DNA of 54,718 nt from Candidatus Latescibacterota bacterium. Its GTDB lineage: Bacteria > Latescibacterota > UBA2968 > GCA-2709665. Under the pieces are notes generated by a model that was not told the origin of the DNA, made no database searches, and saw only the letters and a list, made by a program, of their open reading frames with translations. This document shows positions 5,583-42,644 of this stretch, one piece after another. The number at the start of each line of letters is the position of its first letter. Positions within the stretch are counted from its first letter, which is position 1. The stretch lies in contig CAXXJS010000007.1 of NCBI GenBank assembly GCA_963662665.2, positions 1-54,718 on the forward strand. Direction: 5' to 3'. Made by a program: the position numbers and the translations under genes.

Positions 5583-5814
5583 GTTTGTCTGCGGCAGTTG
5601 CGGTCATCCCTTCGAGTTGTTCATCCAGGGCGCCCAGGAGCCCCGCTGTCCATCCTGTGGAGGCAGCGAGCTTGAAAAGCAACTTTCGGTTTTTGCGGTA
5701 AGCGGAGGCAGCGGCCAGGCGGCGTCTCGCGAACCCCTGGGGCCCTGCGGGACCTGCGGAGACCCCAGAGGTCCCGGCGCCTGTTCACTGAACCAGGCAT
5801 TGAGTCCCGGTTGA
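5569..5814 (+). CDS. FmdB-family zinc-ribbon protein
   Basis: MPIFEFVCGSCG...CPSCG...LSVF pattern; ATG at 5569 after AAGGAG, overlapping the fdhD stop; extra C-terminal CGTCG...C. Confidence 0.85.
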   Translation: MPIFEFVCGSCGHPFELFIQGAQEPRCPSCGGSELEKQLSVFAVSGGSGQAASREPLGPCGTCGDPRGPGACSLNQALSPG

Positions 5815-5891
5815 AACGCCGGGATCTTTTTTCTTGCCGGACCGGCATTCGTCCGGTTTTCCGACCGCCGATCCGATCTGGAGTATCCTAC

Positions 5892-17723: not shown

Positions 17724-18614
17724 ATGCGAATCAACACAACGAGTCTGACGAAAATCTATCAAAAGGGGGCCGCGCCTGCACTGGACAACGTGGACCTGGA
17801 AATCGGACAGGGTACATTCGGGCTGCTGGGACCGAATGGTGCCGGGAAAACCACGCTTATAAAGATACTTTCAACCCAGATGGCGCCAACGGCCGGCGAG
17901 GTCAGAATTGGCGCATGGGATCTGCGGCGAAACCGTTCCGAAGTGCGTCGAAGGCTGGGATATCTTCCTCAGCATTTCGGAGCGTATCCGCAACTGACGG
18001 CGTGGGAGTTTCTGGATTATATGGACCGGCTGGCCGCCGGGCACCGTCGGAACGGCAGAAGGGCGCGGGTACGGGATGCGTTGGAAAACGTGGGGCTATA
18101 CGATGCGCGTGACCGTCGGACCGGCACGTTTTCCGGGGGAATGATGCGCCGACTCGGCGTTGCACAGGCCATTGTGGGCGATCCTGAAATTCTGATTGTG
18201 GACGAGCCCACGGTGGGTCTCGATCCGGAAGAACGCATTCGTTTTCGGGGGATTCTCGCCCGGTTGAGCCGGGATCGGGCCATATTGATTTCAACCCACA
18301 TTGTTGGTGACATTTCGAGTACCTGCGATGATCTGGCCGTGCTGAATGCCGGGCGGATCGTTTACAGGGGATCGCCGGCAACTCTGGTCGCCCGCGCCGA
18401 TGGCAAGACCTGGCGCGTGCAGGCGGACGACGCCGGCTTCGAGAAAATCTCCAGACGTTTTCTGGTCGTGACGGTCGCCGTGGACGGCGGACGGATGGAT
18501 CTTCGGATCGTGGGCGATGGCCAACCGCCCGGCAACGCGGAGCCGGTTTCGCCGAACCTCGAAGATGCGTATGTTTATTTTATCGGTATGGAGAACCAGG
18601 AAAGGGCGGCGTGA
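17724..18614 (+). CDS. ABC transporter ATP-binding protein (ABC-2/DrrA-like)
   Basis: GPNGAGKTT, FSGGM, ILIVDEPT, STH, C-terminal PNLEDAY. Confidence 0.95.
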   Translation: MRINTTSLTKIYQKGAAPALDNVDLEIGQGTFGLLGPNGAGKTTLIKILSTQMAPTAGEVRIGAWDLRRNRSEVRRRLGYLPQHFGAYPQLTAWEFLDYMDRLAAGHRRNGRRARVRDALENVGLYDARDRRTGTFSGGMMRRLGVAQAIVGDPEILIVDEPTVGLDPEERIRFRGILARLSRDRAILISTHIVGDISSTCDDLAVLNAGRIVYRGSPATLVARADGKTWRVQADDAGFEKISRRFLVVTVAVDGGRMDLRIVGDGQPPGNAEPVSPNLEDAYVYFIGMENQERAA

Positions 18615-18620: not shown

Positions 18621-21600
18621 GTGAACATGAATACGGTCTTCACCATATTTTCGGTTGCCAGATACGAACGCAAGTTGCTGATGCGGACGATCAGATTTCG
18701 CATTCTGGGCGGTATCGGCGTACTCATCCCGGTTGTCCTGGGCGTGGGACTGGCGATTGCGGAAGCAAGAGGCGTTGAATTCGAATCCGTTAGTGGAATC
18801 GGCGCCTACATGCCCTTTTTTGTCTACAGTTTTCTGCAGACCGTCGTGATCGCGTTCATTGTCGGGGATTTCCGCGCCGCGGATGAACGCGCGGGGATCT
18901 ACGAGGTGGTTGCAGCCCGACCGCTGTCTACGGCCGAACTGGTCATGGGTAAATACCTGGGTGTTCTGGGCGCACTGATCACGCTCAGCGTGGTTGTGCT
19001 CGTGCTCAGCCTTGGTGTGCAAGCAGCCAAAATCAGCGTAACAGGCGCGCCGTTTACCGTGCGGCCCTATCTGGCGTACTTGCTGCTGTTGAACCTGCCG
19101 GGGCTCGTTTACATGTCAGCCCTTACGTTTTTTCTTGGGGCGGTGTTGCGTCGGCAGGCCGCAGTGACCGTGCTCGTTATCGCCTACGTCGTGATTGTGC
19201 TCTTGTTCCTGGGACGCAGATATGGCGGCATTTACGATTTCGGTGCATTTTTCGCACCCGTGTTCTATTCGGATATGCTGGGTCTTGGCGATATCCGACG
19301 TGTGGTGGAGATCCGGTTCTTCTACATGACGCTTGCTCTGTTTTTCTTCGGTCTGTCCATCGACCGGTACCCGCGTCTGCCGCAATCTAGATCCTGGCGC
19401 CGGTTTGGCCGATGTCTGACCGCCGCCGGCCTCGTCTCCACGCTGGCTCTGTACCTTTATATGGAAGGCCGGGATGCCTCCGACCTCGAATACAGGACGG
19501 CGCAGTTGGCATCACAGGAGAGATATGCCGGTTGGCCTACCGCCGCGGTAACCCACTACACCCTCGACGTGGATCTGGCAACAGGCCGGTCGCCCCTGGG
19601 GTGCACAGCGGTACTGAACGTCTTGAACCCACATCCCGTGCCCCTGGATACGCTGGTTTTCAGTCTCAACCCGGGATTGGAATTGCGGTCTGTGAGCGCA
19701 AGGCCGGCAGGGGACGTTGCTGTCGACTGGCGCCGCGATTACGGCACCGTGCGGGTCGCGCTCCCACTCCAGCCCGATAGTCTGGCGACGCTGGAGTTCG
19801 TGTACGACGGTTCGATTGACCTCAGCGGATTCGATCTCAGACGGCATCCCGATTCAAGGCGCTTGCAGAAGCGTCGCGCCGGCCCCGGAAGAAAGGGTGA
19901 TCTTACGGCCTGGATTCGACACAATTCCGTTTTCCTCCCGCCGCGCAGCAGGTGGTACCCCTCACCGGGAGTGGACTACGGGCATCGGGATGACAGACCC
20001 CGTTCCTTCGCCACTGCGGATCTCAACATTTCTCTTCCCGGCGGGCTGGAAGTAGTGACCCAGGGCGTGCCGGTTAACCGGAAGCCACAGGGAAGACGTG
20101 AGATTCACACATGGAAAGTGGAGCAGCCTGTACCCGTTTTCTCACTCAACGCCGGCGTCTATCGTGTCTTTCAGGCCGAAATTCACGACGTCGAGTGTGC
20201 TATATACGTACATCCGGCCCATGCAAAACAGATCACTTTTTTCGAAGACGCCACGGACGACGCCCTCGATACACTGGGCGAAATCCTGGATAGCGTTGAA
20301 CAGGAAACCAGCCTGGCCTATCCATACAAGCGTCTATCGGTGGTTGAAGTGCCATTCCAGGTGCAATGGTATTACGACGGATGGGAGGAAGCCGGAGGAT
20401 TGGTGCAGCCCGGCGTGATGATGCTGGAAGAGGATGTCCTGATGCGATTGAGGCTGGGACAGCGGCTGAAGTGGATGCAGCGGAGGCAACGGCGAAACGA
20501 CGATCCAGCGAGAATCAAGCGAGATTTGCTGGTCAGGACGATCCTTAACACGTTTCTTGCGGGCGAATCGTCTCAGAGCGGGATATACCGGAGTCCTGTT
20601 GCGCAACTCTGGTCGTTCAACAAGGGATTCGAAGGCGAACACTATTCGCTGTTAAAGCGTGCAATGCCGGTCTACATGCAGAAGCATCTCGGTACCAATC
20701 TGCAGCAGAATTTCTACTCTCGGCGGGGGCGGTTTCGGGGGCGGTTCAGGCGCAACAGGGGCGGGAGTGGCGTCTCCTGGGATACGTTGACGGCCAAGAT
20801 GGCGCAGCGGTCCTTCGCGCAACTGGACCCGAATGCAGACGCGGAACTCTACCGGGCCGTCGTCGATGCCAAGGGCGCCTCCATGTTCGGCATGATGCAG
20901 GCTGTGGTGGGAGACGACGTATTCAGAGACGTTGTCAGCGGATTCGAGGAGGCGAGTCGACACGTCGGGGTGGACTTCGCTTCGTTTGAGAGGGCGGCGG
21001 TCGGCGATTCCTCGGGAGCGGGGAACGGCCCCGACCTGAATCGCCTGGTCCGAGACTGGCTGCACGGCACCCAGGTGCCGGGATACACGCTGACACGGGC
21101 GAAAGCATATAAAGTGGACGACGGGTGGGGGATGCTGACGTATCAGGTCATTGTGAGGATCCGGAACGGTGAACCCGGGCGAGGGTTTGTTCAAATTCGA
21201 GCGATGGGCGCCGAGGACGAGGCGGTAAAGGGCGTGGAGATAGAGGGGGGGCAGGAAGTCGAGGTTGGGTTGATCCTATGGGAACGACCCTCAAGAATAA
21301 GTGTCGAGCCCTTTTTTGCACGTAACCGCCGGGTCCTGATGGCGCCGTTGCGCATTCCGGAGAAGCCGATGGATGGATCCGCCACGACGTACGTGAGGGA
21401 GGTCTCCCCGGATGAGACGGGATTGACCGAAATCATCGTGGACAACGATGACGACGGCTTCGAGATGCCGGTCCGCAGGGTGCGGCGCTATCTGCGACCG
21501 CAGTTGAAGGGGGACAACTGGCAGGAACGCCAGATGCCGTTTTCCTTCGGACGGTATGAGAACAATTTCCGGTGGAAGAAGCCTGGCGACGGCGCGCAGC

Positions 21601-22025
21601 CGGCCGTATGGACGGCCCGGTTGCCCCACAGCGGAGATTACGACGTCTACTATTATTTCATTTCTCCCAGGTTCTCGAAGCGTCTGCGTATGGCGTCGGA
21701 ATTCAATCTGGCCGTGGGCCACGGTGGCGAGGTGGATACGCTGGCAATCGACGCAGGCGAATTGAAGGCGGGTTGGAACGTCCTGGGGCGTTACCGGTAC
21801 GAGGGCGGGGAACTGGCCCGGGTCGAATTGTCCGACCGCGCAAGCGGGCGCCTCTACGCAGATGCGGTGCGCTGGAGATACGTAGACCCCGACCATCCGG
21901 AGGAGGTGTATGAAGAGGACCTCCCGACGTGGAATTTCGGCCGTGGCGGTCGTGGAGGCAACCGCGGCGGTCGCGGAGGGAGCAACCGAAGCGGCCGCGG
22001 TCAATGGCGTGGTGGAAACTGGTAA
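18621..22025 (+). CDS. ABC-2 permease fused to an M1-aminopeptidase-like domain lacking HEXXH, a C-terminal golvesin/xanthan-lyase-type beta-sandwich and an RGG tail
   Basis: About 8 hydrophobic N-terminal helices with ARPLS..ELVMGKYLG; HYTLDV, SLNPGL, WYP, YPYKRLSVVEVP, KGASMF, DWLHG; IIVDNDDDGF...GWNVLG...ADAVRW. Confidence 0.78.
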   Translation: MNMNTVFTIFSVARYERKLLMRTIRFRILGGIGVLIPVVLGVGLAIAEARGVEFESVSGIGAYMPFFVYSFLQTVVIAFIVGDFRAADERAGIYEVVAARPLSTAELVMGKYLGVLGALITLSVVVLVLSLGVQAAKISVTGAPFTVRPYLAYLLLLNLPGLVYMSALTFFLGAVLRRQAAVTVLVIAYVVIVLLFLGRRYGGIYDFGAFFAPVFYSDMLGLGDIRRVVEIRFFYMTLALFFFGLSIDRYPRLPQSRSWRRFGRCLTAAGLVSTLALYLYMEGRDASDLEYRTAQLASQERYAGWPTAAVTHYTLDVDLATGRSPLGCTAVLNVLNPHPVPLDTLVFSLNPGLELRSVSARPAGDVAVDWRRDYGTVRVALPLQPDSLATLEFVYDGSIDLSGFDLRRHPDSRRLQKRRAGPGRKGDLTAWIRHNSVFLPPRSRWYPSPGVDYGHRDDRPRSFATADLNISLPGGLEVVTQGVPVNRKPQGRREIHTWKVEQPVPVFSLNAGVYRVFQAEIHDVECAIYVHPAHAKQITFFEDATDDALDTLGEILDSVEQETSLAYPYKRLSVVEVPFQVQWYYDGWEEAGGLVQPGVMMLEEDVLMRLRLGQRLKWMQRRQRRNDDPARIKRDLLVRTILNTFLAGESSQSGIYRSPVAQLWSFNKGFEGEHYSLLKRAMPVYMQKHLGTNLQQNFYSRRGRFRGRFRRNRGGSGVSWDTLTAKMAQRSFAQLDPNADAELYRAVVDAKGASMFGMMQAVVGDDVFRDVVSGFEEASRHVGVDFASFERAAVGDSSGAGNGPDLNRLVRDWLHGTQVPGYTLTRAKAYKVDDGWGMLTYQVIVRIRNGEPGRGFVQIRAMGAEDEAVKGVEIEGGQEVEVGLILWERPSRISVEPFFARNRRVLMAPLRIPEKPMDGSATTYVREVSPDETGLTEIIVDNDDDGFEMPVRRVRRYLRPQLKGDNWQERQMPFSFGRYENNFRWKKPGDGAQPAVWTARLPHSGDYDVYYYFISPRFSKRLRMASEFNLAVGHGGEVDTLAIDAGELKAGWNVLGRYRYEGGELARVELSDRASGRLYADAVRWRYVDPDHPEEVYEEDLPTWNFGRGGRGGNRGGRGGSNRSGRGQWRGGNW

Positions 22026-22069
22026 TACATTGGGATACATGGGATTATAACTTTTATGTGAGGTGCGTT

Positions 22070-23152
22070 TTGAACAGGCGATTCCCGGACTCTTTTTTCA
22101 TTGTACTCGTAAGTATATCAACGCTGTCCGGCTGCGGCGGGCAAACTGAGCAGCGTTCCGTCGATCTGACCGTCCCCGTAACGGTTCAGGCCGTGCGAAT
22201 GGACACGATGGAAGCGACGGTGTCGGCCACGGGCACGCTCCGACCCACCAAGGAGGCCAGAATTCTAACCGAGGTCGAGGGAATTCTTCAATTTATCGCA
22301 CGGGGCGTCGGAGGACGGCCGACGGAGGGGATGCGGCTGAACCGAAACCAGGAGATCGCCCGTCTTGTAAACAAGGAGCTTGTTGTAAACGCCCGCCTGG
22401 AATCCCGTGAGCTTGCACTTGCCGCCGCGAAGCGAACCCTGCGCGATCAGGAGGTGCTCGTTGAACGCAAGCTGGGCACGGAAAAGGATCTGGAAGAAGC
22501 GCGCCACGCCTTCGCCGAGGCCGAATCAAACTATGAAAACGCTCTCGTTCAGATCGCCAAGACAACCATTCGCACACCAATCGCCGGCTTTCTGACCGGA
22601 TTGGCCGATATTACCGAAGGTACGCTTGTGGATGCCCGCACAACCATTGCAACGGTAATGGATTACAGCCGGGTGCTGGTCGATCTCAAGATACCCAATG
22701 CCTATATTGCGTCGGTATCACCGGGGCAGGTTGTACGGGTGGAGAACTATGCGTTGCCCAACCGACGGTTTCTGGGGACCATCAAGGTGGTGGATCCGGC
22801 CATTGATCCAACAACACGCACGTTCCGGGTGGTGGGAGCGGTGGAGAATTCGGGCCTGATGTTACGGCCAGGCATGTTCGTGACGGCGGAGATTGTAACG
22901 GAGTCGCATGAAGACGCGGTGGTGATTCCACGCCGGTTTGTTCTGACCCGACAGAATCGCAAGGTGGTTTTTGTGGAAGAGGAGGGAAGGGCGCAGATGC
23001 GCCATGTGGAATTGGGGCTGGAGGGAACGGAGCAGGTCGAGATTCTGGATGGGCTTGAGGCGGGCGAGCGTCTCATTACCAGCAACTACGAGACCCTGCG
23101 GGCCCGTACGCGCGTGAGGGTAACCGGCGAGGGAGTGCCGGGGCAGCGATAA
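22070..23152 (+). CDS. RND efflux periplasmic adaptor (MFP), probable lipoprotein
   Basis: TTG after GAGGTG; LSGC lipobox; ATGTL, IRTPIAG, IDPTTRTF, LRPGMF, GLEAGE. Confidence 0.92.
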   Translation: MNRRFPDSFFIVLVSISTLSGCGGQTEQRSVDLTVPVTVQAVRMDTMEATVSATGTLRPTKEARILTEVEGILQFIARGVGGRPTEGMRLNRNQEIARLVNKELVVNARLESRELALAAAKRTLRDQEVLVERKLGTEKDLEEARHAFAEAESNYENALVQIAKTTIRTPIAGFLTGLADITEGTLVDARTTIATVMDYSRVLVDLKIPNAYIASVSPGQVVRVENYALPNRRFLGTIKVVDPAIDPTTRTFRVVGAVENSGLMLRPGMFVTAEIVTESHEDAVVIPRRFVLTRQNRKVVFVEEEGRAQMRHVELGLEGTEQVEILDGLEAGERLITSNYETLRARTRVRVTGEGVPGQR

Positions 23153-23184
23153 ACACCGGTGTTCTTTCCCTGAATCGGATAACC

Positions 23185-23428
23185 GGATGTTGACAGTTTT
23201 CCGCGACGGGACACAGGTTGCGGATATCCGCCGATTCGAGGACCCGAAGCGAATTCGAGAGATCCCGTCCGCGGCGAAATTGCATTCAGCAGAAACCTTG
23301 TGAGTTTTCGTTTGGACCCTTCTTGGGCCCGGGGAATGCATGTGGGGCTTTCGGAGGGTTATTTTTAGCCCGAATCCTCGCGGCCCACATTCCCGCGGAC
23401 GTCCGGGGGTAGGACAGTTGTCAATACC
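23185..23428. mobile_element. MITE-like structured insertion between the MFP and RND genes
   Basis: Imperfect terminal inverted repeats GGATGTTGACAGTTTTCC and (reverse complement) GGTATTGACAACTGTCC; internal hairpins (CCGCGACGGGA/TCCCGTCCGCGG, ATGTGGG/CCCACAT). Confidence 0.45.
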
Positions 23429-23448
23429 TCTTGTAAAGGGCTGATACG

Positions 23449-26400
23449 ATGTCATTGCCCGAATTCTCAACAAAATACCCGGTGACGATCGCGATGGCCA
23501 CACTGGCGGTGGCACTCCTGGGTTGGATCTCACTGGAACGGCTGGACGTGGACCTTCTGCCCGATGTGCGTTCCCCCGTGATCACAGTAGACCTGCGATT
23601 TCCGGGCAAGACGCCCAGGGAGATGGAAGAGCGTTACGCACAACGGCTCGAAGGGGATATTGGTACCGTGCGTCACGTCAAACGGGTACATTCAGTATCC
23701 CGTTCCGGGCAGGCCGTGGTGATAGCGGAATTTGAATGGGATGCGGATATGGATTTCGCCCTGCTCGACGTACAGAAGAAAGTGGCGCGATACGCGGCGG
23801 ATCCAGATATCGCGAGTCTGGACGTTACGCAGGAAGACCCCCAGGCGCTGCCGGTGATTCGACTGGCCGTATCCGGAGCTGATTGGCAGGATCCGGACGA
23901 ACTGTTGGGCAGTGTGGAAACCATAATCCGGCCTAAACTTGAAGGGTTTTCCGGCGTTGCTTCAGTGGAAATCGAAGGTGGGGCTGAAAAGGAGATCCAC
24001 GTTACGCTGGATTCCTATCTCCTGCAAGCCTTCGGCGTCAACTCCGAAACGGTCGTATCGCGGATTCGGGAAGCGAATTCGGATGTCTCCGGTGGAACGT
24101 TGAAGGACGGACAACGATCCTATCTGGTCAAGGGTCTGGGACGTCTGACAGATTTGAAGGACGTGAATAACCTGGTTGTGGGCGAGCGTCGAGGCGAAAC
24201 CGGGAACGGGCAGGAGGATGCCCCCGCCGAAAGGGTGCCCGTCATGGTCAGCGACGTGGGTGCCGTAGCTCTCCAATATAAGGAGAGAGAGACAATCGTG
24301 CGCCTCGATGGTGTGGAGTGCGTCGGTCTTTCAATTTACAAAGAGGCGGGGGCGAATACTTCCTCGGTGGTCAATCGGGTTCTCGAAGAACTGGGAAACC
24401 TGGAGGCCGACCTGGCCGGCGTGCGCTTTACGGTGGTCGAGAACCAGGCGCGGTTTGTGGAACGCGCGGTAAACGAAGTGGAAGAGGCGGCCATTATCGG
24501 CGCACTGCTGGCCGTGGGTGTGCTGCTGGCGGCGCTCCGGCAGTGGACGGCAACACTGGTGATCGGTCTTGCCATTCCGATCTCCGTGCTGGCCACCTTC
24601 ACACTGATGTATTTTCAGGGGTTGACGTTGAACGTGATGACCCTGGGCGGGTTGGCGTTGGGCGCGGGCATGCTGGTCGACAACGCGATTGTCGTGATCG
24701 AAAACATCCACCGTCACCTGGAACGGGGAGAATCGGCCGTCGAAGCCTCCATTAAGGGTGCAAGCGAGGTGGGAGTCGCCATCCTGGCTTCCACACTTAC
24801 CACGGTGTCCGTGTTTCTGCCCATCGTCTACCTTCACGGTCTGGCCGGCGAACTGTTCAAGGAGCAGGCCTGGACGGTCGCGTTTTCGCTGATTTCGTCT
24901 CTCGCGGTGGCCATGACAACCGTCCCTATGTTAACCGCCCGGCTCTTTGGCCGGTATCGCCGCCGGTCCGCAAGCGTCGCCGGGTCGGTCGCGTTCAATC
25001 GCCTTCTTAGTGGATCGCTCAACCACAAGGGACGTACGTTGGCAGTGCTTTTCGCGTGTCTTCTGGCCGCCGTCTATATGGCCAGGTCCATCCACACGTC
25101 TTTTATTCCGGGTGAAGACGAGGGTGTACTTCACGTGGACGTCTCGTTGCCGGAGGGCACAAGGCTTGAGTCGACGGACAGGGTTTCGAGACGCATTGCC
25201 GCGATCACGCAGGCAGTTGCCGGAAAGGAAGCCCGGCACATCTACCTTCGCGTGGGAAACGATCCGAACCGGCTGACGGCAGTGGGAGAACCCTCCGGCC
25301 CCAACAGGGCGGAGCTGACGGTGGTGCTGGCGAAGCGAGAGGACCGGCGCAGTGTTTCCGAACTCACCGCCGCTCTGGACGCCGCCATTCGCGAGGTGCC
25401 GGAAATCAAAGTTAACTATCGACTTCAAAAGGCTGCACTGGAAGGGCTTATTCGAGGAGATTCTGCGCCGGTTCAAGTCGAGGTCAGCGGTGAGAACCTG
25501 GAATTACTCCGGGAGCTCACGGCAGACTTGAAACGGCGCATGGAAGCGTTATCAACGGTATATAACGTGCGAACCACCTTCCAGGACGGTCAGCCGGAAG
25601 TGGACGTGGTGTTGCGGCCGGACGTCACGGCGGCGTTTGGACTTACGTCACAGAACCTCGTGCGCGAACTGGAGCGCAGGCTGGCAGGCGAGGAAGCCGG
25701 AGAACTCTCCAAAGACCAGCGTGCGCGAACCATCCGGGTGGGTTTCGAGGACCTGGACATTCGTGAGTTGAAACACGCCAGAATTGACGGCCCGGACGGT
25801 GCGATGCTCACGCTGGGAGATCTCGCCGACCTGCGCGTGGTCCAGGGACCGCGGGAGATCCTGCGCGACGGTCAGCGCCGGGTGGGAAGGGTATCGGCAT
25901 ATCTGTCCGATGGCGTGGTGCTGGGCCAGGCTGCAACGCAGATCAGGCAGGCGGTGGGACAGATGGCCATTCCACACGGATACCGGGTGAACGTCACGGG
26001 TGAGGAACGCGAACGGGCCGAGTCATTTGGCGGCCTCCAATTCGCCCTCATTCTATCGGTAGTGCTCGTCTATATGGTAATGGCGTCGCTATTCGAGTCC
26101 CTGCTACATCCGTTTACGGTGATGTTTACGGTGCCGCTTGCCGGGATTGGGGTGGTATTCGCGTTCTGGAGCCTTGGAGAGGCGTTTGGCATTATGGCAT
26201 TTATAGGTGCGATCATGCTGGGCGGAATCGCCGTGAATGACGCCATCATTCTTGTGGATCGCATCAACCAGTTGCGGCGCGATACGGGCGACTTGAGACA
26301 GGCGGTACTTCGGGGGGCGCAGGATAGGCTGCGCCCGATCCTGATGACCAGCGGCACGACCATCCTGGCGTTGTTGCCCATGGCGGTGGGAGTGGGGGAG

Positions 26401-26532
26401 GGCGCCCGTTTAAGGGCGCCGATGGCTGTGGCGGTTATCGGCGGGTTGGTAACTTCCACACTGATGACTCTGGTGGTGATTCCCGTGGTTTACGAATTGA
26501 TTGAACGGCTTAGATTCCGGAGGGCGCCGTGA
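23449..26532 (+). CDS. RND permease (AcrB/MdtB-like)
   Basis: GMLVDNAIVVIENI, LASTLTT, YMVMASLFES, GIAVNDAIILVD, RLRPILMT. Confidence 0.95.
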   Translation: MSLPEFSTKYPVTIAMATLAVALLGWISLERLDVDLLPDVRSPVITVDLRFPGKTPREMEERYAQRLEGDIGTVRHVKRVHSVSRSGQAVVIAEFEWDADMDFALLDVQKKVARYAADPDIASLDVTQEDPQALPVIRLAVSGADWQDPDELLGSVETIIRPKLEGFSGVASVEIEGGAEKEIHVTLDSYLLQAFGVNSETVVSRIREANSDVSGGTLKDGQRSYLVKGLGRLTDLKDVNNLVVGERRGETGNGQEDAPAERVPVMVSDVGAVALQYKERETIVRLDGVECVGLSIYKEAGANTSSVVNRVLEELGNLEADLAGVRFTVVENQARFVERAVNEVEEAAIIGALLAVGVLLAALRQWTATLVIGLAIPISVLATFTLMYFQGLTLNVMTLGGLALGAGMLVDNAIVVIENIHRHLERGESAVEASIKGASEVGVAILASTLTTVSVFLPIVYLHGLAGELFKEQAWTVAFSLISSLAVAMTTVPMLTARLFGRYRRRSASVAGSVAFNRLLSGSLNHKGRTLAVLFACLLAAVYMARSIHTSFIPGEDEGVLHVDVSLPEGTRLESTDRVSRRIAAITQAVAGKEARHIYLRVGNDPNRLTAVGEPSGPNRAELTVVLAKREDRRSVSELTAALDAAIREVPEIKVNYRLQKAALEGLIRGDSAPVQVEVSGENLELLRELTADLKRRMEALSTVYNVRTTFQDGQPEVDVVLRPDVTAAFGLTSQNLVRELERRLAGEEAGELSKDQRARTIRVGFEDLDIRELKHARIDGPDGAMLTLGDLADLRVVQGPREILRDGQRRVGRVSAYLSDGVVLGQAATQIRQAVGQMAIPHGYRVNVTGEERERAESFGGLQFALILSVVLVYMVMASLFESLLHPFTVMFTVPLAGIGVVFAFWSLGEAFGIMAFIGAIMLGGIAVNDAIILVDRINQLRRDTGDLRQAVLRGAQDRLRPILMTSGTTILALLPMAVGVGEGARLRAPMAVAVIGGLVTSTLMTLVVIPVVYELIERLRFRRAP

Positions 26533-29500
26533 TTCTTCCCGATCTTGCCGTCAGGCGTCCGGTGACGACGTCCATGTTCTTCGCCGCGTTCGCCATATTG
26601 GGTGTCGTGTCGTGGACCCGGCTTCCGGTACAGCTTTTTCCGGAACTGATTTTCCCGGAAGTCTTCGTCACGCTCTCGCTGCAGGGGGCCTCCCCGGAAC
26701 AGGTTGAGAGGGATCTTGTGATTCCCGCCGAAGGGGCGATCGGCAAGCTGGACGGGATCCAGGAGATGGAGTCCTTCGCAATGGCCAACAGGGGTGGTAT
26801 CAGAGTAGCCTACGCTCCGGACGTGGATATGAAGTTCGCCCTGCTTCAGCTGCAAAGCAACCTGAATAGATTGCAGCCAACGCTGCCTGAACGTACGCAA
26901 ACCGATGTACGAAGATTCGACTCGACAGACCTGAGCAGCAGCATCATGGAACTCCACGTGCTTGCCGATTGGGATCTGAACCAGTTACGGGAGTTCACGG
27001 AGGAAAAGATCCGCCCCGAATTGGAGTCTGTCGACGGCGTTGTGAACGTATTGGTAATGGGTGGTCGGCGCAGCGCCGTGGAAATCGTCCTGGATCCGGT
27101 TCTGCTGGAAGCGCACGGCCTTTCAACCGGAGCGGTACGGGCGCGCCTGAACAACTACAATCGGCGACGGGAGTACCTCGGTCGCGTATACGACGGGAAT
27201 CGTGCCTGCTCCGTGAGCATTCATGGACAGTTTACGGACCTCCTGCAGATTCGGAATCTGGTGTTGAATGCGGACGGCACCCTCCGGCTGGGCGACGTTT
27301 CCCGTGTGGGATACGGACTTCAGGAGCAGGCCGACCGCCACCGGGTCAACGGGAAACCTTCGGTGGGGGTCCGGATCCAGAAAGACGACGAGGCGAACCT
27401 GATTGAGGTGGCAGCCGCGGTAGAAGCGGCCATTGCGCAGTTGAATCGCACGTTCAAGAGCGACGGCGTGGAACTGGGCGTGAGCTCATCTCAGGCGGAT
27501 CTGATGACCGGGGCGCTTTCCACGCTGAAACAGGCGGCCATAATTGGTGCCGTCCTCGGCCTGGTCGTACTCTTTCTGTTTCTTCGGAACCTTCGTTTCG
27601 TCTCGGTCCTCCTGCTCGCCATTCCGGTTTCTCTCTTGATGACCTTCAATCTTATGTACCTGGGTGGTCTGTCGGTCAACGTGCTTTCACTTTGCGGCCT
27701 GGCCCTCGCGATGGGAATGCTCGCCGACAACGGCATCGTGGTGATGGAGAGCATCTTCAAGCACTATGAGCGTGGAAAATCGCCCGCGCGGGCGGCGCGC
27801 GACGGGGCAGCCGAGGTCGGTCGTGCGGTGGTCGCGGCAACAGCAACCACGGTAACCGCTTTCCTGCCAGTGCTATTTATCGAAAGCGACGCGCAGGATC
27901 TGCTGCGGGAGCTCGCGCTGTCCATGGCGTTTCCATTAATGGCCTCTCTGCTGGTAGCGCTGACGCTTGTTCCGGCCCTTGCCGTCCGGGCACTTAATCG
28001 CGATGTCCGAAAACCGCCGGACGTCCGGGGCTTACTGGAACAGTATACACTGCTGTTGAAAACTGCATTGCGGCACCGGGCGTCTGTCGCTCTGTCCGTT
28101 GGGGGGGTCCTGGCGTTGACACTCGTCGTGGCCTTCTTCTTTCTGCTCCAGCAACAGGTGCGGAGGGAGGAGACGCGATTTACGGTTTACGTGAACCTGC
28201 CGGAAGGGGCCACGCTCGATGCCACCGACGAGGTCGCGAAACAGGTGGAAGAAACTGTGCGGGACGTGCCCGGTCTGGATCGGTTTACAACGTCGGTGCA
28301 GGAGGCCGAGGCCAGCGTCACCGTCCTGCTGAGAAAGCGTTCTGACCGGCCCGGCGACATCTCGCTTGACGAAATAAAGGAACAGCTCGACGAGAAATTG
28401 CAGAACGTGCAGGGAGGGGTGGTAGGATACGAACCCAGACCCCGTGCGGGACGAGGCGGTCGCGGGCAGGGGATAGGACAGCGTCGGAGGCGTAGTTCCG
28501 GTGGATTCGATCTGACCGGGGCCACGCCGAACGAGCAGGCCGTGGTGAGAGGCTACGATTTTACCATTCTGACGATGGTTGCCAACGACGCGGTGTACCG
28601 CCTCGAGGAACTCGAGGAGGTGGATGCCAACAGCGTGCGCGCCGACGCCGAACGGAGTTCGCCCGAGGTGCAGGTGATTCCCGATGCGGCTTCCCTGTTC
28701 GACCGGCGGCTTGGGGCACAGGAGGTCCTGGCCGCCGTGGGAGACACGCGATGGGACGGATTCCGCACCACCGTACCGTTTCTGCTGCCTGACGCAACCG
28801 AGGTACCCATTGAAGTGCGGACGATCGAAGAAGAGGACCGTGAACGTTACGGACTGGCTGAATTGAAACGGTCCCGTATTCTCAACCAGGACGGTCAGTA
28901 CGTGTCTCTGGACGAAGTCGCGCGGGTTCGAACGGACGAGGGCAGGAGCAGTCTCTTGAGGACGGACCAGGCCCGGCGGATTGTGGTTTCCTACCGGTTT
29001 CCTTCGGAAATTCTGGATTCACAACCGCGGTTGGATACTGCGAGACGGGTCGTTCGGACGACACTGCAGGACATGGTGCTGCCTGAGGGCTATTCAATTG
29101 AAATCATCGAGGCGCACGAGGAGACGATTTACTATTGGATGATTGGAATTGCCGCGGTACTCATCTATATGATTCTGGCCTCGTTGTTTGAATCTTTCGC
29201 CTCTCCGATAATCATCCTATGCACGCTGCCGCCCGCCGCCATCGGCTCGTGTTGGGCGCTGATGATGTCGGGCACGGGCCTGAGCCAGCAGGAAGGGCCC
29301 ATGGCGCTGCTGGGCTTTGTCGTCTTGTTGGGCATTGCCGTAAATAACGGGATTATCCTGATAGACGCCGTCGGCGTACTCCGGTCCCGTTTCGGCTTTC
29401 GCCGGGAACGCGCAGTCCTGACGGCGGCGAGGTCCCGTGTTCGGCCCATATTAATGACGACGGCTACAACGCTTCTGGGCGTTCTTCCGCTCGCGCTGGA

Positions 29501-31241
29501 ATTCGGTGGGGATTTCGAAATCTGGCCGCCGTTCGCAATAACTGTTCTGGGTGGGTTGTCTGTTTCCATGGTGTCCACTTTGATCCTGATTCCGGTCGTG
29601 TACATGGGACTGGACCAGATCGGCGATTGGCTGGCCGACCTGGGCTTTATCGGCCTCGTGTTCTCGCTGCTTTCTACCGCAGCGGCCGGCTATGGCGTAT
29701 ATATCCGATATGAAAGCGTTTTCTGGGCCGCGTTGTCGATATTTCCCATATGGGCCGCGTTCCTGACGGCGGTGTGGATCGTACTGAAAATCCATCGCGC
29801 CCGGGTCGCCTCGCGCCGCGCCGCGAGCGCCGTCCATTCGATTCAACTTAGAAACCTGACTAAAATTTACGGCGCGCCCGGGCGTTTTGGCAGGGAGTGG
29901 GCGCGCTATGAACGTCGGAAGGGGCGGTTGGGAACAACGGAACCTGATTCGCAGGACCTCAAACGGATTCGCGATGCGCTCTTGTGGAAGCTGCCGTTGC
30001 TCGCACTGTTGTTGTATTTCGCGACGTATTTCGAGGACGAAATCTGGATTTATCTGCACGGGTTGGCGCTGGTATTCATGCTTGGCCACGTGGGTTGCTG
30101 TATCGGCGCGCTCTTGCGGGAACATCTGTTGCCGGCGGTAGAACGTATTGGTGATATTCTGTATAGAGTCGCTTTGCCGGTGGGATTCGTGGCTTACATG
30201 CATTTGCGGCTGAATCTGCTTTCCGTTACCATTGCCACGTTAGGCTTGTGGGCCGCCTACCGACTTGTACGATGGCTTTCCGGCAGGGTGCGGGCGGGCG
30301 TGGTCACTCCCGATGAGCTAACCGGACGATTCGTGCGGGCCCGTAGATGGCTCTATTGGACGGCATCGGCCATACCCATCGTTGGCGTTCCCCGGCCTGA
30401 ATTTCGGGCGCTGGCGGGCGTCAACCTCGAAATCGGCAGGGGAATGTTCGGTCTTTTGGGCCCGAACGGCGCGGGAAAGACCACGTTGATGCGCATTCTG
30501 TGCCGGGTCCTCGAGCCCAGTTACGGGTCGATTCTTATCGACGGTCGAAACATCCTTCGAAACGGCTCAATTCATGGCCTGGTCGGATATCTTCCTCAGC
30601 ACTTTGGCAACTACCCACATCTTTCGGCGTACGAGTTTCTGGAATACCGGGCGCTGCTCGAAGGCTTCAAGGACCGCAAGACCCGCGAGTCAAGGGTTAT
30701 CGAATCCCTGGAAAAGGTGAATCTCATCGAACGCATGGACGATCCCATCGGGTCGTTCTCAGGGGGAATGAAGCAGCGTCTCGGGATCGCGCAGACCCTG
30801 TTGCACACCCCGCTGATCGTGGTTGTTGACGAGCCCACGGCAGGGCTCGATCCGCTGGAACGTATCCGGTTTCGTAACTTGCTCGCCCGGTTGAGCCAGG
30901 ACAGGATCGTCATCTTCTCCACGCACATCGTGGAAGATATCTCCGGAAGCTGCAATCGACTGGCGGTACTTGATCAGGGGCGTCTTCTGTATACCGGAAC
31001 GCCGGGGGAGATGAGAAATCAGGCGGAAGGACGGGTATGGGATGCGGTGGTTTCGGAACAGCGCTTTACCGAGTTGGAAGAAAAACTGAAGGTCGTATCG
31101 CACCAGCGGACGCCGGACGGGGTCAGAATGCGATTCCTGTCTGAACGCCGGCCGATAGGGTTTGGCGCACGGAGTACGGAACCAACCCTGGAAGACGCGT
31201 ACCTGTACCTCCTTGGCGGAGGAAAGGAAGAGCCATGCTGA
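26529..31241 (+). CDS. RND permease fused to extra transmembrane helices and a C-terminal ABC ATPase (1570 aa)
   Basis: Complete RND (GMLADNGIVV, GIAVNNGIILID, RVRPILMT) continues in one frame to GPNGAGKTT, FSGGM, VVDEPT, STH; GTGA overlap with the upstream stop. Confidence 0.92.
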   Translation: MILPDLAVRRPVTTSMFFAAFAILGVVSWTRLPVQLFPELIFPEVFVTLSLQGASPEQVERDLVIPAEGAIGKLDGIQEMESFAMANRGGIRVAYAPDVDMKFALLQLQSNLNRLQPTLPERTQTDVRRFDSTDLSSSIMELHVLADWDLNQLREFTEEKIRPELESVDGVVNVLVMGGRRSAVEIVLDPVLLEAHGLSTGAVRARLNNYNRRREYLGRVYDGNRACSVSIHGQFTDLLQIRNLVLNADGTLRLGDVSRVGYGLQEQADRHRVNGKPSVGVRIQKDDEANLIEVAAAVEAAIAQLNRTFKSDGVELGVSSSQADLMTGALSTLKQAAIIGAVLGLVVLFLFLRNLRFVSVLLLAIPVSLLMTFNLMYLGGLSVNVLSLCGLALAMGMLADNGIVVMESIFKHYERGKSPARAARDGAAEVGRAVVAATATTVTAFLPVLFIESDAQDLLRELALSMAFPLMASLLVALTLVPALAVRALNRDVRKPPDVRGLLEQYTLLLKTALRHRASVALSVGGVLALTLVVAFFFLLQQQVRREETRFTVYVNLPEGATLDATDEVAKQVEETVRDVPGLDRFTTSVQEAEASVTVLLRKRSDRPGDISLDEIKEQLDEKLQNVQGGVVGYEPRPRAGRGGRGQGIGQRRRRSSGGFDLTGATPNEQAVVRGYDFTILTMVANDAVYRLEELEEVDANSVRADAERSSPEVQVIPDAASLFDRRLGAQEVLAAVGDTRWDGFRTTVPFLLPDATEVPIEVRTIEEEDRERYGLAELKRSRILNQDGQYVSLDEVARVRTDEGRSSLLRTDQARRIVVSYRFPSEILDSQPRLDTARRVVRTTLQDMVLPEGYSIEIIEAHEETIYYWMIGIAAVLIYMILASLFESFASPIIILCTLPPAAIGSCWALMMSGTGLSQQEGPMALLGFVVLLGIAVNNGIILIDAVGVLRSRFGFRRERAVLTAARSRVRPILMTTATTLLGVLPLALEFGGDFEIWPPFAITVLGGLSVSMVSTLILIPVVYMGLDQIGDWLADLGFIGLVFSLLSTAAAGYGVYIRYESVFWAALSIFPIWAAFLTAVWIVLKIHRARVASRRAASAVHSIQLRNLTKIYGAPGRFGREWARYERRKGRLGTTEPDSQDLKRIRDALLWKLPLLALLLYFATYFEDEIWIYLHGLALVFMLGHVGCCIGALLREHLLPAVERIGDILYRVALPVGFVAYMHLRLNLLSVTIATLGLWAAYRLVRWLSGRVRAGVVTPDELTGRFVRARRWLYWTASAIPIVGVPRPEFRALAGVNLEIGRGMFGLLGPNGAGKTTLMRILCRVLEPSYGSILIDGRNILRNGSIHGLVGYLPQHFGNYPHLSAYEFLEYRALLEGFKDRKTRESRVIESLEKVNLIERMDDPIGSFSGGMKQRLGIAQTLLHTPLIVVVDEPTAGLDPLERIRFRNLLARLSQDRIVIFSTHIVEDISGSCNRLAVLDQGRLLYTGTPGEMRNQAEGRVWDAVVSEQRFTELEEKLKVVSHQRTPDGVRMRFLSERRPIGFGARSTEPTLEDAYLYLLGGGKEEPC

Positions 31242-31957
31242 ACTGGCGGGAACTGCTGCTTACCACGTGGCGGCTCTTTCGGCTGAGCTGCAGGATCATA
31301 TTTCACAGGAAATTGATGTTCATGGCCATTGGCGTCCTCGTCTATTACGGAGCCATGTATGCATTTGCAGTCTGGCGCCCAAACGAAGGATTCGGCGTAT
31401 CGCGCGCCCTCAATGTTCTGGTTGAAATTCCCGGTATCGCACTGGCTGTTTATCTGACGATGGATCTGGTTGCGGGCGAACGAGACAGAAATACACTGGA
31501 GACGTTATTCAGTACAACCTCATCCCACTATAAGATATGGGCGATCCGGATGGTGGGGGTCTATGTGGTGTTGGCGGGAACCCTGATGGGAATGACGATT
31601 GTGGCCTATTTTGTTTTCGCGGAATTGCCGGTTTTCCGGGGCGCGTTGAACGCCTTTCTGCCCGCGTGTTTTGCCGCTGGGCTGACATTCTACTTTTCCG
31701 TTCTCTGCCGAAGCGGAAATGCGGCAGCGATGCTCGCTACGGGAGTAATGGGCCTGACGCTGGTCGTGTCGGAATCCATGCCCGATTCACCCTTCGTGCT
31801 CTTTCTGAGTACGTTCGACCCCCCGGTGGGCATGGAAGACACCCTGTGGGGCGACCAGGTGCTGCTCAATCGCGTGGCTGTACTGATGTTATCGGGCCTG
31901 CTGCTTTTTATGGGACTTCGCAAGATGGAAGCCCGGGAGCGATTGGTTTCTTCGTAG
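31235..31957 (+). CDS. ABC-2 type permease
   Basis: Six hydrophobic segments with GERDRNTLETLF loop motif; overlaps the upstream stop, AGGAAG RBS. Confidence 0.85.
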   Translation: MLNWRELLLTTWRLFRLSCRIIFHRKLMFMAIGVLVYYGAMYAFAVWRPNEGFGVSRALNVLVEIPGIALAVYLTMDLVAGERDRNTLETLFSTTSSHYKIWAIRMVGVYVVLAGTLMGMTIVAYFVFAELPVFRGALNAFLPACFAAGLTFYFSVLCRSGNAAAMLATGVMGLTLVVSESMPDSPFVLFLSTFDPPVGMEDTLWGDQVLLNRVAVLMLSGLLLFMGLRKMEARERLVSS

Positions 31958-39550: not shown

Positions 39551-40940
39551 GAGTTATATTCAAAAGTTGTGGATGAGTAAAAAAAAGAGCGTATCCTTAA
39601 GTGTCACCATAAACCCGCGAGGCCCCTCGGACGAGGGAGAAAGGATACGCTCGATGAGACAATATACAGCCTCCGAAGTTGAGACGATAGTCAAAGATGA
39701 AGTGACGTTGAGCCTGGAAGCCCTGATCCGTGTTGGTGCCAGGCGGATGCTGCAGGCCGCGCTGGAGTTTGAAGTGGACGCCTACGTCGAGAACCTGCAG
39801 GACGAGAGAGACGAACAAGGTCACCGGCAAGTGGTCAAAAATGGTGCCCACAAGCCGCGGGACCTGCTCACGGGCATGGGACCGATACCGATCCGCCAGC
39901 CGCGTGTGCACGACCGTCGTGAGGGCAAAGCGTTTCGATCTGCGATTTTGCCGCGGTATATGCGTCGAGCACCGTCGATCGATGCGTTGATTCCGGCGCT
40001 GTATCTCAAGGGTGTGTCCACGTCGTCGTTCCCTGAGGCGCTTGCCGCCATTCTGGGCGAGCAGGCCCCTGGATTGTCACCGGCCAACGTGGTTCGTCTC
40101 AAACAGATTTGGGAACAGGAATATCAGGCCTGGCGTGAACGGGATCTTTCGGACAAACACTACGTGTATGTGTGGGCTGACGGCATCTATTTCCAAGTGC
40201 GGCTGGAACCGGACCGGCCCTGTGTCTTAGTCCTCATCGGCGCCACCAGGGACGGTCGCAAGGAGCTTTTGGCCATTGAAGATGGGCATAGGGAAAGCAA
40301 GCTGTCCTGGCAGAACGTGCTGACGGACCTGAAACGACGCGGGTTGAAGGAAGCGCCCGCCCTGGCGATTGGCGATGGGGGTCTGGGGTTCTGGGCAGCG
40401 CTGGAGGAAGTCTTCCCTCAAACACACCATCAGCGCTGCTGGGTGCACAAGAGTGCCAACGTGCTGGATAAGCTCCCCAAGACGGTCCAGGCGCAGGCCA
40501 AAGCGCACCTCCACCAGATGTATCTGTCACCCACCAGACAGGATGCCCTGGGCGCTTACGAGGACTTCCTGTCCCTCTATGAACCCAAATACCCCAAAGC
40601 GTGTGCGTGCCTGGAAAAAGACAAGGACGTGCTGTTCACCTTTTACGATTTCCCTGCCGCTCACTGGCGACACCTCCGGTCCACCAATCCCATCGAATCC
40701 ACCTTCAGCACCGTTCGACACCGCACACGACAGACCAAAGGATGCGGCTCTCGAAATGCCACGATGATGATGGTCTACAAACTGGCAGAAACAAGCCCAA
40801 AAACACTGGCACAGATTACACGGTCACAAACTCATTGAACTCGTCGTACAGGGTGTCGAATTCCAGGACGGAGACATTAAGGCCGCCGCTTAATCCATCA
40901 GGATGCGCTACCCGCCATCCACAACATTTGACAATATCTC
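39551..40940 (+). mobile_element. IS256-family insertion sequence, 1390 bp
   Basis: Terminal IRs GAGTTATATTCAAAAGTTGTGGATG and (reverse complement) GAGATATTGTCAAATGTTGTGGATG; 8-bp target duplication GATAAATC at 39543-39550 and 40941-40948. Confidence 0.95.
39654..40893 (+). CDS. IS256 (Mutator-type DDE) transposase with a +1 frameshift near the C-terminus
   Basis: LYLKGVST, WADGIY, IGDGGLGFW, QRCWVHK, STNPIES; removing one A at 40789-40791 restores AEQAQKHWHRLHG...GVEFQDG to TAA at 40893. Confidence 0.9.
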
Positions 40941-41904
40941 GATAAATCGGGGCGTTTTCTTTTCTTATCCCGGCAGATTGCGTGATCCGTTTGAAGGAAT
41001 GGTGCCACCCCTAACAAGGAAACGTCTGTACGAATGGCTAATCCAAAAACATAAAGCCCCGGTTCATCAATTTGATGAAATTGTCAATATCTTTATACAC
41101 AATTTAAAAAACCAACACATCGTTTCTTGTTGGCACGCAATGGAGCACGAATCGGAAGCCATGTGGCGCCTATATGCCGGTACGGGAGCCGGGATCGCGA
41201 TCAAGACCACCTTCGAATCGCTGGAAAAGGCTTTCAAGAGTTGCGCTGAATCGAATGTCAAATATAAAGCTGGCAAGGTAATTTACGTAGACTACGATAC
41301 GTGCGATATTCCCCTTTTGAATGCGATGGCGTTGTTTCACAAGAAAGAATCCTTCAGTTTGGAGCGGGAAGTTCGCATCGTCCGCTTTTCTGACGGGAAT
41401 GAAGACTGTCCGGGCATAACCTGCAGCGCGGATCTAGGGGAACTTATCCAGGAGGTAGTGGTGTCACCTCTTGCAGACAGTTGGATGTTCAAAGTCGTCA
41501 AGGAAACCACAGCGAAATTTGACGCATCATTAGTGAAGAGAATCAGAAAATCAAAATAGCAGCGCGTGATTCCGTAGATGTCAGCCGAGGAACTTGCAAG
41601 CGTGACCTTTCAGAATTTAGAAGGTGTGTTTTCGTTCGCTTTGCAGCCGAACCCGATACATCCGTGAAGGACGTTGATTAATTCAACCGGGCGTTGTGGG
41701 AGTTGTGGCAGCAGATAGAGAAGTGCTTTCACGGCATCTCTATGCGGAGACCAGCGTACAACTGTTACAGAACGCACCGATCGTCCAGGACATTGCTTAG
41801 GGATTTTGCGAAAACGGAGCGAGTGATGCCCTTGACAGGATTGACAATTGTGATTTCTTTTTATTGAAGATGCGTCGTGAGCCTTCTGGAACGAACCAAC
41901 TAAA

Positions 41905-41975: not shown

Positions 41976-42644
41976 CTATTGAATGGGTTCATCCTGCCTG
42001 TGTTTCTCCTGCACTATGGATAATTCGGTTTTCAAGCGCCCTATTTCCCGGTTTTTGGCTGCCAGGTCCTCTTTGAATGCTTCGCAGCTGTTTTCGAGTA
42101 CCCTGTTTTTTTCTAGTAACTGATTTTTTTCTTCTCCGTGCCGGTTCAGTTCTTTTCTGAGCCAGTGCGCCGTTAAAACCGCCTCTTCCCGGGTTTTATC
42201 CGCTACACGGAGGTTTTCCCGCAAACCCTCGATGTCATCCTTGTATTTTCGCGCTTCCGTCCATCCGGATGCAGACGATGCTTCGAGTTGGGTCTGGCGT
42301 TCGTGAAGTGTCCGAAGTTCGGCCGTGCGTTCAGCCAGAGCCCGCTCAACGGCATCCAGTTTGCCAATGCGCTGCTGCAACCGGTCGTAGTCGTCTCTTT
42401 GAAGTTGTACCAGGGACTCGCTTTGGAGTCGTTCAATTCTTTTTGGCTCTATAATTTTTCCATATTTTTTCCTATAAATTTCCAATATATTTTCTCTGGG
42501 AATTCTCCACGCGCCATTCCACTTCTGGGCTTTCAAGAATCCCCGATCTATATAGTTTCGGACCGTTTTTGTCGTCACTTTGAGTAAATTCGCTGCCTGA
42601 TCTATGGTCAGGTGCTGTAACTGTGTATCTCGGGAGTCGGACAT
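41976..42644 (-). CDS. MerR/excisionase-like helix-turn-helix plus coiled-coil protein
   Basis: LTIDQAANLLKVTTKTVRNYIDRGFLKAQK...WRI followed by about 140 aa of heptad-like E/K/R/L-rich sequence; GGAGGG RBS. Confidence 0.8.
   Translation of the reverse strand: MSDSRDTQLQHLTIDQAANLLKVTTKTVRNYIDRGFLKAQKWNGAWRIPRENILEIYRKKYGKIIEPKRIERLQSESLVQLQRDDYDRLQQRIGKLDAVERALAERTAELRTLHERQTQLEASSASGWTEARKYKDDIEGLRENLRVADKTREEAVLTAHWLRKELNRHGEEKNQLLEKNRVLENSCEAFKEDLAAKNREIGRLKTELSIVQEKHRQDEPIQ

Follow-up and report, generated by a model that had tools for sequence, protein, structure and literature searches.

A conserved RND-ABC fusion in Latescibacterota whose ATPase domain is split after its first strand by an insert of four probably membrane-embedded helices

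In a contig of 54,718 nucleotides from a Candidatus Latescibacterota bacterium (CAXXJS010000007.1, hereafter the window), a single gene fuses a permease of the resistance-nodulation-division (RND) type to an ATP-binding cassette (ABC) ATPase. The ATPase part is itself split: its first strand, which ends in the A-loop tyrosine, is separated from the remainder of the domain by 178 residues that contain four hydrophobic helices. This split RND-ABC architecture is real and conserved; the layout of the sequence, its conservation and the intact ATPase motifs are observed directly. RND pumps are textbook proton-driven exporters, and in the ABC ATPases matched here (the stand-alone paralogue P0002 of the same window and solved chains) the domain is one uninterrupted soluble stretch, a pattern that the fusion breaks beside the residue that stacks on adenine. 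An earlier note on this DNA, made from the sequence alone, had proposed the split and had suggested that a membrane bundle next to the A-loop Tyr could couple membrane movements to ATP binding. That the insert is a permissive, anchoring one is at least as likely as such A-loop coupling, based among other things on the short soluble inserts of related fusions and on a predicted complex with a neighbouring permease.

The open reading frame (ORF) at 26529-31241 (+) is one uninterrupted frame of 1570 codons with no internal stop, encoding a protein of 1570 aa. Its start codon is GTG, in a 4-base overlap with the stop of the upstream RND gene. The N-terminal part is matched by the Pfam family ACR_tran (PF00873; E 1.2e-180, profile positions 3-1019 of 1021) and has the full length, the 12 helices and the two large periplasmic loops of an RND permease, with consistent hydropathy peaks. 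Among solved proteins MdtB (9lyq_B, E 6.7e-86) is nearest to it in sequence. At the other end ABC_tran (PF00005) matches residues 1297-1438 (E 6.7e-27). Bases 29841-29873 (att caa ctt aga aac ctg act aaa att tac ggc) read IQLRNLTKIYG, residues 1105-1115, and ALAGVNLEIGRGMFGLLGPNGAGKTT follows at residues 1294-1319 (bases 30408 to 30485), which leaves 178 residues (1116-1293) between the two. The earlier note had put this distance at about 180 residues, in agreement with the bases read directly; the span it gave, 29841 to 30486, starts correctly but ends one base too late. Where ABC domains have a contiguous hairpin of strands 1 and 2, the fusion therefore has 178 residues with four hydrophobic helices.

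The catalytic motifs of the ATPase lie beyond the insert: Walker A (GPNGAGKT, residues 1311-1318, bases 30459-30482), the Q-loop Gln (Q1357), the signature SGGMxQR (S1411-R1417), the Walker B Asp with the catalytic Glu (D1434-E1435) and the switch His (H1466). Judged by these motifs, the fused ATPase should be catalytically complete. The A-loop is defined in the available text of PMC9867378. Its aromatic residue in the fusion is Tyr1114, which closes the first strand, precedes Walker A and is matched by Y12 of the paralogue in the alignment.

In the sequence of this stand-alone paralogue, P0002, both elements are contiguous, as had been claimed. The C-terminal part of the fusion is 47% identical to P0002 over 278 residues (BLASTP), with the alignment beginning only at ALAGV (residue 1294), and in a MAFFT alignment MRINTTSLTKIY of P0002 falls on IQLRNLTKIY of the fusion. 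The A-loop Tyr and Walker A are 197 residues apart in the fusion and 24 in P0002. The ABC_tran match in P0002 likewise begins after the first strand (residue 20), and sLTKIY of P0002 aligns to eLTKIY of the second nucleotide-binding domain (NBD2) of solved ABCA4.

Homologues were collected with fusion residues 1030-1570 as the database query. All 120 of those listed contain both PF00873 and PF00005; most are 1540-1650 aa long, identities run from 39 to 85%, and Gemmatimonadota, Latescibacterota, KSB1, Acidobacteriota and Krumholzibacteria are among the source names. For 111 proteins 1480-1660 aa long the C-terminal 600 residues were aligned (shorter ones, several of them labelled partial, were excluded). 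The alignment of homologues, one of the checks proposed in the earlier note, upheld the layout: the insert is gap-free in 111 of 111 full-length proteins, and the strand motif N-L-T-K-I-Y is conserved at 70-99%. Mean consensus across these homologues is 0.66 for the strand, 0.75 for the motif GAPGRFxREW that follows it, 0.73 for the ATPase core and 0.37-0.53 for the flanking helices. In a separate 73-row alignment (A1) K1112, Y1114, Walker A, the Q-loop Gln, the signature, the Walker B Asp-Glu and the switch His are invariant; W1124 is close to invariant and Trp is conserved at the helix ends.

Within the phylum, 168 genomes of Latescibacterota were searched with a 206-aa query made up of the strand, the insert and the second strand. 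Matches were found in 84 of them, and in 34 of the 52 high-quality genomes. None of the listed phylum matches contains an internal stop. Most of their open frames reach about 1500 aa or more, and the shorter ones are mostly on small contigs. In a library of representatives at 50% identity, 36 of the best 150 rows span strand, insert and ATPase in one stretch. The same layout occurs in two Bacteroidales genome records (L013, L014); these were also the 2 of 80 kept loci in which a locus search with alignment A1, returning mostly ordinary ABC ATPases, covered the insert.

Residues 1021-1570 (P0003) were modelled with AlphaFold2 from the 73-row alignment, with a mean predicted local distance difference test (pLDDT) of 85.2 and a predicted template modelling score of 0.70. 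In P0003 numbering the model runs from helices 2-41 and 44-76 through a strand at 84-94, a basic helix (99-116), four helices and a further helix (249-261) to the strand 272-283 that opens the ATPase. The four insert helices, at 121-144, 151-176, 182-208 and 211-235, are 24-27 residues long and modelled confidently (pLDDT 83-97 by blocks); about four hydrophobic helices had been predicted in the earlier note. The position of the first strand was read from the ranges of structural alignments, not from coordinates. In VIA-align, whole stand-alone ABC ATPases superpose from their own residue 1-2 on model residues 81-84 onward. For example, 1vpl aligns over 234 of 238 residues (model 83-543 to chain 2-239) with Z 27.4 and a root-mean-square deviation (rmsd) of 1.6 Å; other matches are 4yer_B (Z 28.9) and LptB 4p31_B (Z 27.5). 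Because nearly all target residues are aligned at an rmsd of 1.6 Å, the first strand of the target must fall on model residues 84-94. The model thus has the ABC fold with IQLRNLTKIY in its antiparallel sheet, and the pairing for which the earlier note had suggested an AlphaFold check is supported: the first strand is predicted to dock at its canonical position. The conservation pattern supports this docking independently of AlphaFold2. When the membrane module alone was modelled (residues 1021-1290, without the ATPase; pLDDT 91.2), residues 1104-1114 came out as coil, and the segment is therefore predicted to be a strand only when the ATPase is present. In the model helix 14 (Table 1) lies 7 residues before the strand and the next helix begins 4 residues after it. 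With adjoining helices only 4-7 residues away, both strand ends would be tied to the membrane.

The membrane character of the insert was assessed over the 111 homologues with the Kyte-Doolittle and Wimley-White octanol scales, using the best 19-residue window. Octanol free energies are favourable for insert helices 1-4 in 96, 111, 111 and 108 of the homologues, and below zero for helix 14 in every one; for control helices of the ATPase they are favourable in 0 of 111. Kyte-Doolittle maxima of the four helices in the window protein are 1.11, 2.13, 1.25 and 0.99. Lys and Arg together number 13, 1 and 8 (medians) in the predicted cytoplasmic stretches, and the loops predicted to lie outside have 0 and 1, as the positive-inside rule would have it. 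The C-terminus of RND permeases is cytoplasmic, and the even number of helices on either side of the strand matches this. Hydropathy, helix length and charge distribution together make it likely, though not proven, that the insert is embedded in the membrane, and it behaves as the four-helix membrane segment that had been proposed. Neither a strand outside the nucleotide-binding domain nor an insert that is not transmembrane, the two outcomes named in the earlier note as speaking against the idea, was found.

No relative was identified for the membrane module, and no new fold is claimed. Pfam assigned no family to the 206-aa insert region, with only a chance-level row for Peptidase_M48_N (E 0.094). 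A protein atlas queried with the insert of homologue P0072 returned only noise-level scores of 0.78-0.80 to unnamed clusters of 43-47 aa. Foldseek gave no match to the membrane module alone at E <=0.001, and the best VIA-align hit of the module among 48,161 chains (Z 9.2 over 82 residues, where the caution line for helical bundles is about 13) was to generic helical hairpins.

The fusion stands in a row of six same-strand genes, in the order ABC ATPase, 1134-aa permease, adaptor, unfused RND, fusion and 240-aa permease. The row was found in the same order at all 20 fetched loci, from genomes picked for having the insert. Relatives of the 240-aa protein are called NosY-like permeases by one source. 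Complex models of residues 1021-1570 with this permease gave interaction prediction scores from aligned errors (ipSAE) of 0.64, 0.64 and 0.59, against 0.00 for the best control; the runs have at least 95% of contacts in common, with a partner pLDDT of at least 72. In calibration, 116 of 157 solved complexes and 2 of 215 mismatched pairs passed the mark applied to this score, counts that hold only roughly here because own alignments were supplied. On the ATPase side the interface comprises residues 94-95 (the end of the strand), 302-309, 329-363, 402 and 406 in P0003 numbering, and on the permease side the N-terminal helix 6-24 and the 85-96 loop. The model supports a canonical docking of the fused ATPase on the downstream NosY-like permease. 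No insert residues are among its confident contacts, which is not evidence against contact by the insert.

A second class of RND-ABC fusions, 1389-1458 aa long and derived from public metagenomes, surfaced in the representative search (P0165, P0168, P0179, P0188, P0202, P0239, P0247, P0268). ACR_tran is followed by ABC_tran in all eight. These shorter fusions have the domain order of the present family and, like it, an enlarged loop between strands 1 and 2, but they lack helices 13-14 and have only a short, soluble insert: the strand motif (e.g. IEIRNLCKIY) is followed by a short soluble stretch, and the spacing from Tyr to Walker A is 46-72 residues in 8 of 8. With P0179 as query the class was not found in Latescibacterota, no listed match extending past query residue 1029. 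A rapid maximum-likelihood tree of 78 ATPase cores (unrooted, insert excluded) contains a branch with a Shimodaira-Hasegawa-like approximate likelihood ratio test support of 98 that sets 36 stand-alone ATPases, the one of the cassette among them, apart from the other 42 rows. The latter are all 26 insert-bearing fusions, all 12 short-insert fusions and 4 short entries (P0184, P0177, P0182, P0267); their order inside the fused group is not resolved. The tree fits, but does not prove, one fused lineage with an expandable strand 1-2 loop.

Five entries that might have been stand-alone split ATPases (P0155, P0216, P0144, P0177, P0184) look like fragments. P0155 (526 aa) is on a 2433-base contig and falls into the same 90% cluster as a 1567-aa protein, while P0184, P0177 and P0182 begin within the insert. 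P0267 (539 aa, Met start, 14.9-kb contig) has no RND part and comprises two helices followed by strand, insert and ATPase; it may be a stand-alone split ATPase or a truncated gene call. Insertions at this site are also found elsewhere: in CFTR NBD1 about 30 residues are inserted between strands 1 and 2, and severed channels without most of this insertion are regulated largely normally by protein kinase A and ATP, with slightly shortened open bursts (available text of PMC2217481). Together with the short inserts of the second fusion class, this shows that the strand 1-2 site tolerates insertions and is structurally permissive.

The explanation judged probable, if with some reserve, is that the six extra helices act as a membrane staple, or anchor, that fixes the ATPase beside the RND pump. 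From RND helix 12, which ends in the cytoplasm, the chain would cross outward in helix 13, return in helix 14 and form the first strand with Tyr1114; it would then run through the basic cytoplasmic helix, the insert helices (out, in, out, in) and the short helix into the second strand and the rest of the ATPase. Helices 13-14 and the four insert helices would make up one six-helix membrane module, presumably packed on the RND domain, with a main job that is mechanical or organisational: to staple the ATPase to the inner membrane face beside the RND transmembrane domain. There it would be positioned to drive the co-translated NosY-like ABC-2 permease directly downstream. Placed under that permease, it would thus form an ABC-2 exporter half built onto an RND protomer. 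Several points weigh against this explanation. A pure anchor would have no obvious need of four helices inside the domain, with helices 13-14 already tethering it, nor of the strongly conserved GAPGRFxREW after the A-loop Tyr; both hint at more than a passive role. AlphaFold2 could have completed the ATPase fold from any strand-like segment, the docking being a model and not a measurement, and the complex score may reflect the likeness of the pair to solved type V complexes such as NosFY. In addition, only insert helix 2 is clearly hydrophobic in the window protein, helices 1, 3 and 4 being moderate (Kyte-Doolittle 1.0-1.25). This last point would also suit a soluble or membrane-peripheral helical bundle that does not cross the membrane, as would fold searches that gave only generic helical matches. 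Such a bundle is nevertheless improbable, given helices of 24-27 residues in an even number that suits cytoplasmic strands, octanol energies favourable in 96-111 of 111 homologues, positive-inside charges and Trp at the helix ends.

The site of the insert, directly after the invariant Tyr1114, lends itself to another explanation, in which helix 14 and insert helix 1 hold the first strand between them like a strap and the strand serves as an allosteric or mechanical transducer. Movements of the RND transmembrane domain would be passed to the A-loop and so change ATP binding; conversely, the RND helices would be pulled when ATP closes the ATPase, and the RND protomer would be gated or powered by ATP. 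The short links of 7 and 4 residues give the strand a strap-like geometry, GAPGRFxREW is conserved like the ATPase core, and the fused RND is without the helix-10 carboxylate (VNN in 110 of 111, against ND in 20 of 20 unfused paralogues). Such a role is nonetheless regarded as unlikely in both directions: short soluble loops without additional helices serve at this position in the related fusions, the ATPase of the complex model couples to the downstream permease by the customary route, and the fused RND keeps its helix-4 Asp. Anchoring and transduction are not mutually exclusive. Lower still is the probability given to the split ATPase as a force transmitter, whose ATP binding and hydrolysis would drive or gate the RND helices of a pump run or controlled by both ATP and protons, a hybrid of primary and secondary active transport. 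The late start of the Pfam match (residue 1297) and of the BLASTP alignment with the paralogue (1294) would be expected if IQLRNLTKIY were a relic of an older domain boundary and the ATPase incomplete or only a regulatory ATP binder. This is very improbable, however: the profile begins after the first strand in stand-alone P0002 too, the motif is conserved as strongly as the core and all catalytic residues are invariant, the same LTKIY motif stands ahead of the ATPase core in ABCA4 NBD2, and in the model the strand docks with a whole-domain rmsd of 1.6 Å. An artefactual joining of two genes, through an error in sequencing, assembly or frame, can be dismissed in practice. Apart from some short database entries that resemble separate genes, nothing was found to support it; against it, no stop interrupts the 1570 codons, complete chromosomes of many species contain this frame too, and the short entries are explained (P0155 by its small contig, P0184 and P0177 by their start inside the insert), with only P0267 as a possible stand-alone protein.

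Table 1. Features of the fusion gene and its neighbours in the window
Feature	Residues	Position	Strand	Basis or content
Stand-alone paralogous ABC ATPase P0002, first and second strands contiguous		17724..18614	+	Pfam, translation, BLASTP
ABC-2 permease of 1134 aa with a large extracytoplasmic part (Golvesin_C)		18621..22025	+	Pfam
RND-type periplasmic adaptor (membrane fusion protein)		21929..23152	+	Domain matches
Unfused RND paralogue, 1027 aa		23449..26532	+	Domain matches
Whole fusion gene		26529..31241	+	1570 aa: RND permease, six extra helices, split ABC ATPase
AcrB-type RND permease domain	5-1027	26541..29609	+	Pfam ACR_tran
Extra helix 13, prolonging RND helix 12	1022-1061	29592..29711	+	AlphaFold2 H2-41 of P0003; hydropathy
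Extra helix 14, predicted to bring the chain back to the cytoplasm	1064-1096	29718..29816	+	AlphaFold2 H44-76; hydropathy
First ABC strand SIQLRNLTKIY, A-loop Tyr1114 at its end	1104-1114	29838..29870	+	DSSP strand E84-94; structural alignments; conservation
Motif GAPGRFGREW, start of the insert	1115-1124	29871..29900	+	Conservation
Basic, predicted cytoplasmic helix leading from strand to membrane	1119-1136	29883..29936	+	AlphaFold2 H99-116; hydropathy -1.87
Insert helix 1	1141-1164	29949..30020	+	AlphaFold2 H121-144; octanol <0 in 96/111
Insert helix 2	1171-1196	30039..30116	+	AlphaFold2 H151-176; octanol <0 in 111/111
Insert helix 3	1202-1228	30132..30212	+	AlphaFold2 H182-208; octanol <0 in 111/111
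Insert helix 4	1231-1255	30219..30293	+	AlphaFold2 H211-235; octanol <0 in 108/111
Short, predicted cytoplasmic helix ahead of the second strand	1269-1281	30333..30371	+	AlphaFold2 H249-261
Remaining ABC ATPase, second strand onward, and C-terminal domain		30402..31241	+	Pfam ABC_tran; motifs; paralogue identity
ABC-2 (NosY-like) permease of 240 aa, start overlapping the fusion stop		31235..31957	+	Pfam; named relatives; complex model

Three further ORFs on the antisense strand or in other frames, at 29451-30203 (minus), 29887-30141 and 30500-30829, have no Pfam match at or below 0.01 and are regarded as shadow frames of the GC-rich fusion gene. The 1134-aa permease combines an N-terminal ABC-2 membrane part (GldF-like, weak) with a C-terminal Golvesin_C domain, an unusually large extracytoplasmic extension. 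In distant relatives of the row (L101, 5246-6796) an outer-membrane factor gene (Pfam OEP, E 1.2e-48) is located between the large ABC-2 permease and the adaptor; it is absent at that place in the window (22025-23449), the rest of the genome not having been searched.

Elsewhere in the window, the ORFs 1980-3071 and 3120-4706 (+) share a frame and are linked through an in-frame TGA at 3069-3071, which as a selenocysteine codon would yield the junction NCSRAUHAPTVAGL. The Pfam Molybdopterin profile is split across the two ORFs (1-80 and 98-353), which adjoin FdhD (4728-5582) and a Nuo51-like subunit (176-1921), and 1980-4706 probably encodes one selenocysteine-containing formate dehydrogenase alpha subunit. 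A homocysteine S-methyltransferase profile is likewise divided over two overlapping ORFs (+), with positions 1-172 in 5811-6581 and 180-281 in 6452-7639, the second of which also has a SAM methyltransferase domain; the split at 5811-7639 may be a frameshift or a sequencing error. Between 38000 and 42700 the GC content is 0.46-0.51, against about 0.59 elsewhere in the window, and the genes there are a Mutator-family transposase (39567-40838), DUF2971 (40903-41559) and HTH_17 (41976-42644, minus). This stretch is probably a mobile element inserted beside the glycine cleavage T gene.

If the six helices are an anchor only, the fusion shows how two transporter classes are combined in a single envelope machine, in several phyla that have been little studied. 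If coupling is true, ATP and proton energy would come together naturally in a single pump, which would also offer a new handle on membrane sensing by ABC domains.

Among known RND systems the row resembles pumps of the MdtABC type (an MdtB2C heterotrimer), in which an adaptor gene is likewise followed by two adjacent RND paralogues, but neither MdtB nor MdtC has an ATPase attached. RND pumps of the hydrophobe/amphiphile efflux-1 family are rarely heterotrimers, MdtBC being an example (available text of the review PMC8277102). In the window, the hint of a heteromeric RND pump is the gene order (adaptor, RND, RND-fusion). The two paralogues also differ within the membrane: helix 4 reads Asp-Asn in both, but helix 10 reads Asn-Asn in the fused RND (26529-29630; VNN in 110 of 111 homologues) and Asn-Asp in the unfused one (20 of 20). 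At the corresponding positions of a printed alignment MdtB has Asp-Asp in helix 4 and Lys in helix 10, a set of residues that the fusion lacks. These positions are taken to be those of the RND proton relay. The relay of the fused protomer looks reduced, because the helix-10 carboxylate kept by the unfused paralogue is lost, and the two paralogues may differ in proton handling. That ATP substitutes for protons in the fused protomer is speculation.

What appears to be new is an ordinary ABC ATPase and an ordinary RND pump joined and interleaved with membrane helices, an arrangement not described as far as the literature was found. No description of an RND-ABC fusion, or of membrane helices within an ABC domain, was met in the literature searched (subscription journals not covered), including the available text of the tripartite-pump review PMC8277102.

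The site of the insertion has a parallel in the regulatory insertion of CFTR (residues 404-435), which also lies between strands 1 and 2 of its NBD1. In severed CFTR channels the domain is functional with its first strand on a separate chain (available text of PMC2217481). The CFTR segment is about 30 residues long, soluble, mobile and phosphorylated, whereas the insert of the fusion is 178 residues long with four long hydrophobic helices and is not a short, soluble, mobile segment with a kinase site. The likeness is one of site, an analogy without sequence likeness, and does not suggest membership. By family, the fused ATPase belongs with the type V (ABC-2) exporters, such as NosF/NosY, ABCA proteins and DrrA/GldA. 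Its best NCBIfam models are DrrA and GldA and its best solved relatives are TM_1403, NosF and ABCA proteins, and in the predicted complex it sits, as in type V exporters, on an amphipathic N-terminal helix and a coupling loop of the permease. In the known type V members matched (P0002 and solved chains) strands 1 and 2 are contiguous, whereas the fusion carries its predicted membrane helices inside the ATPase chain and is joined to an RND permease.

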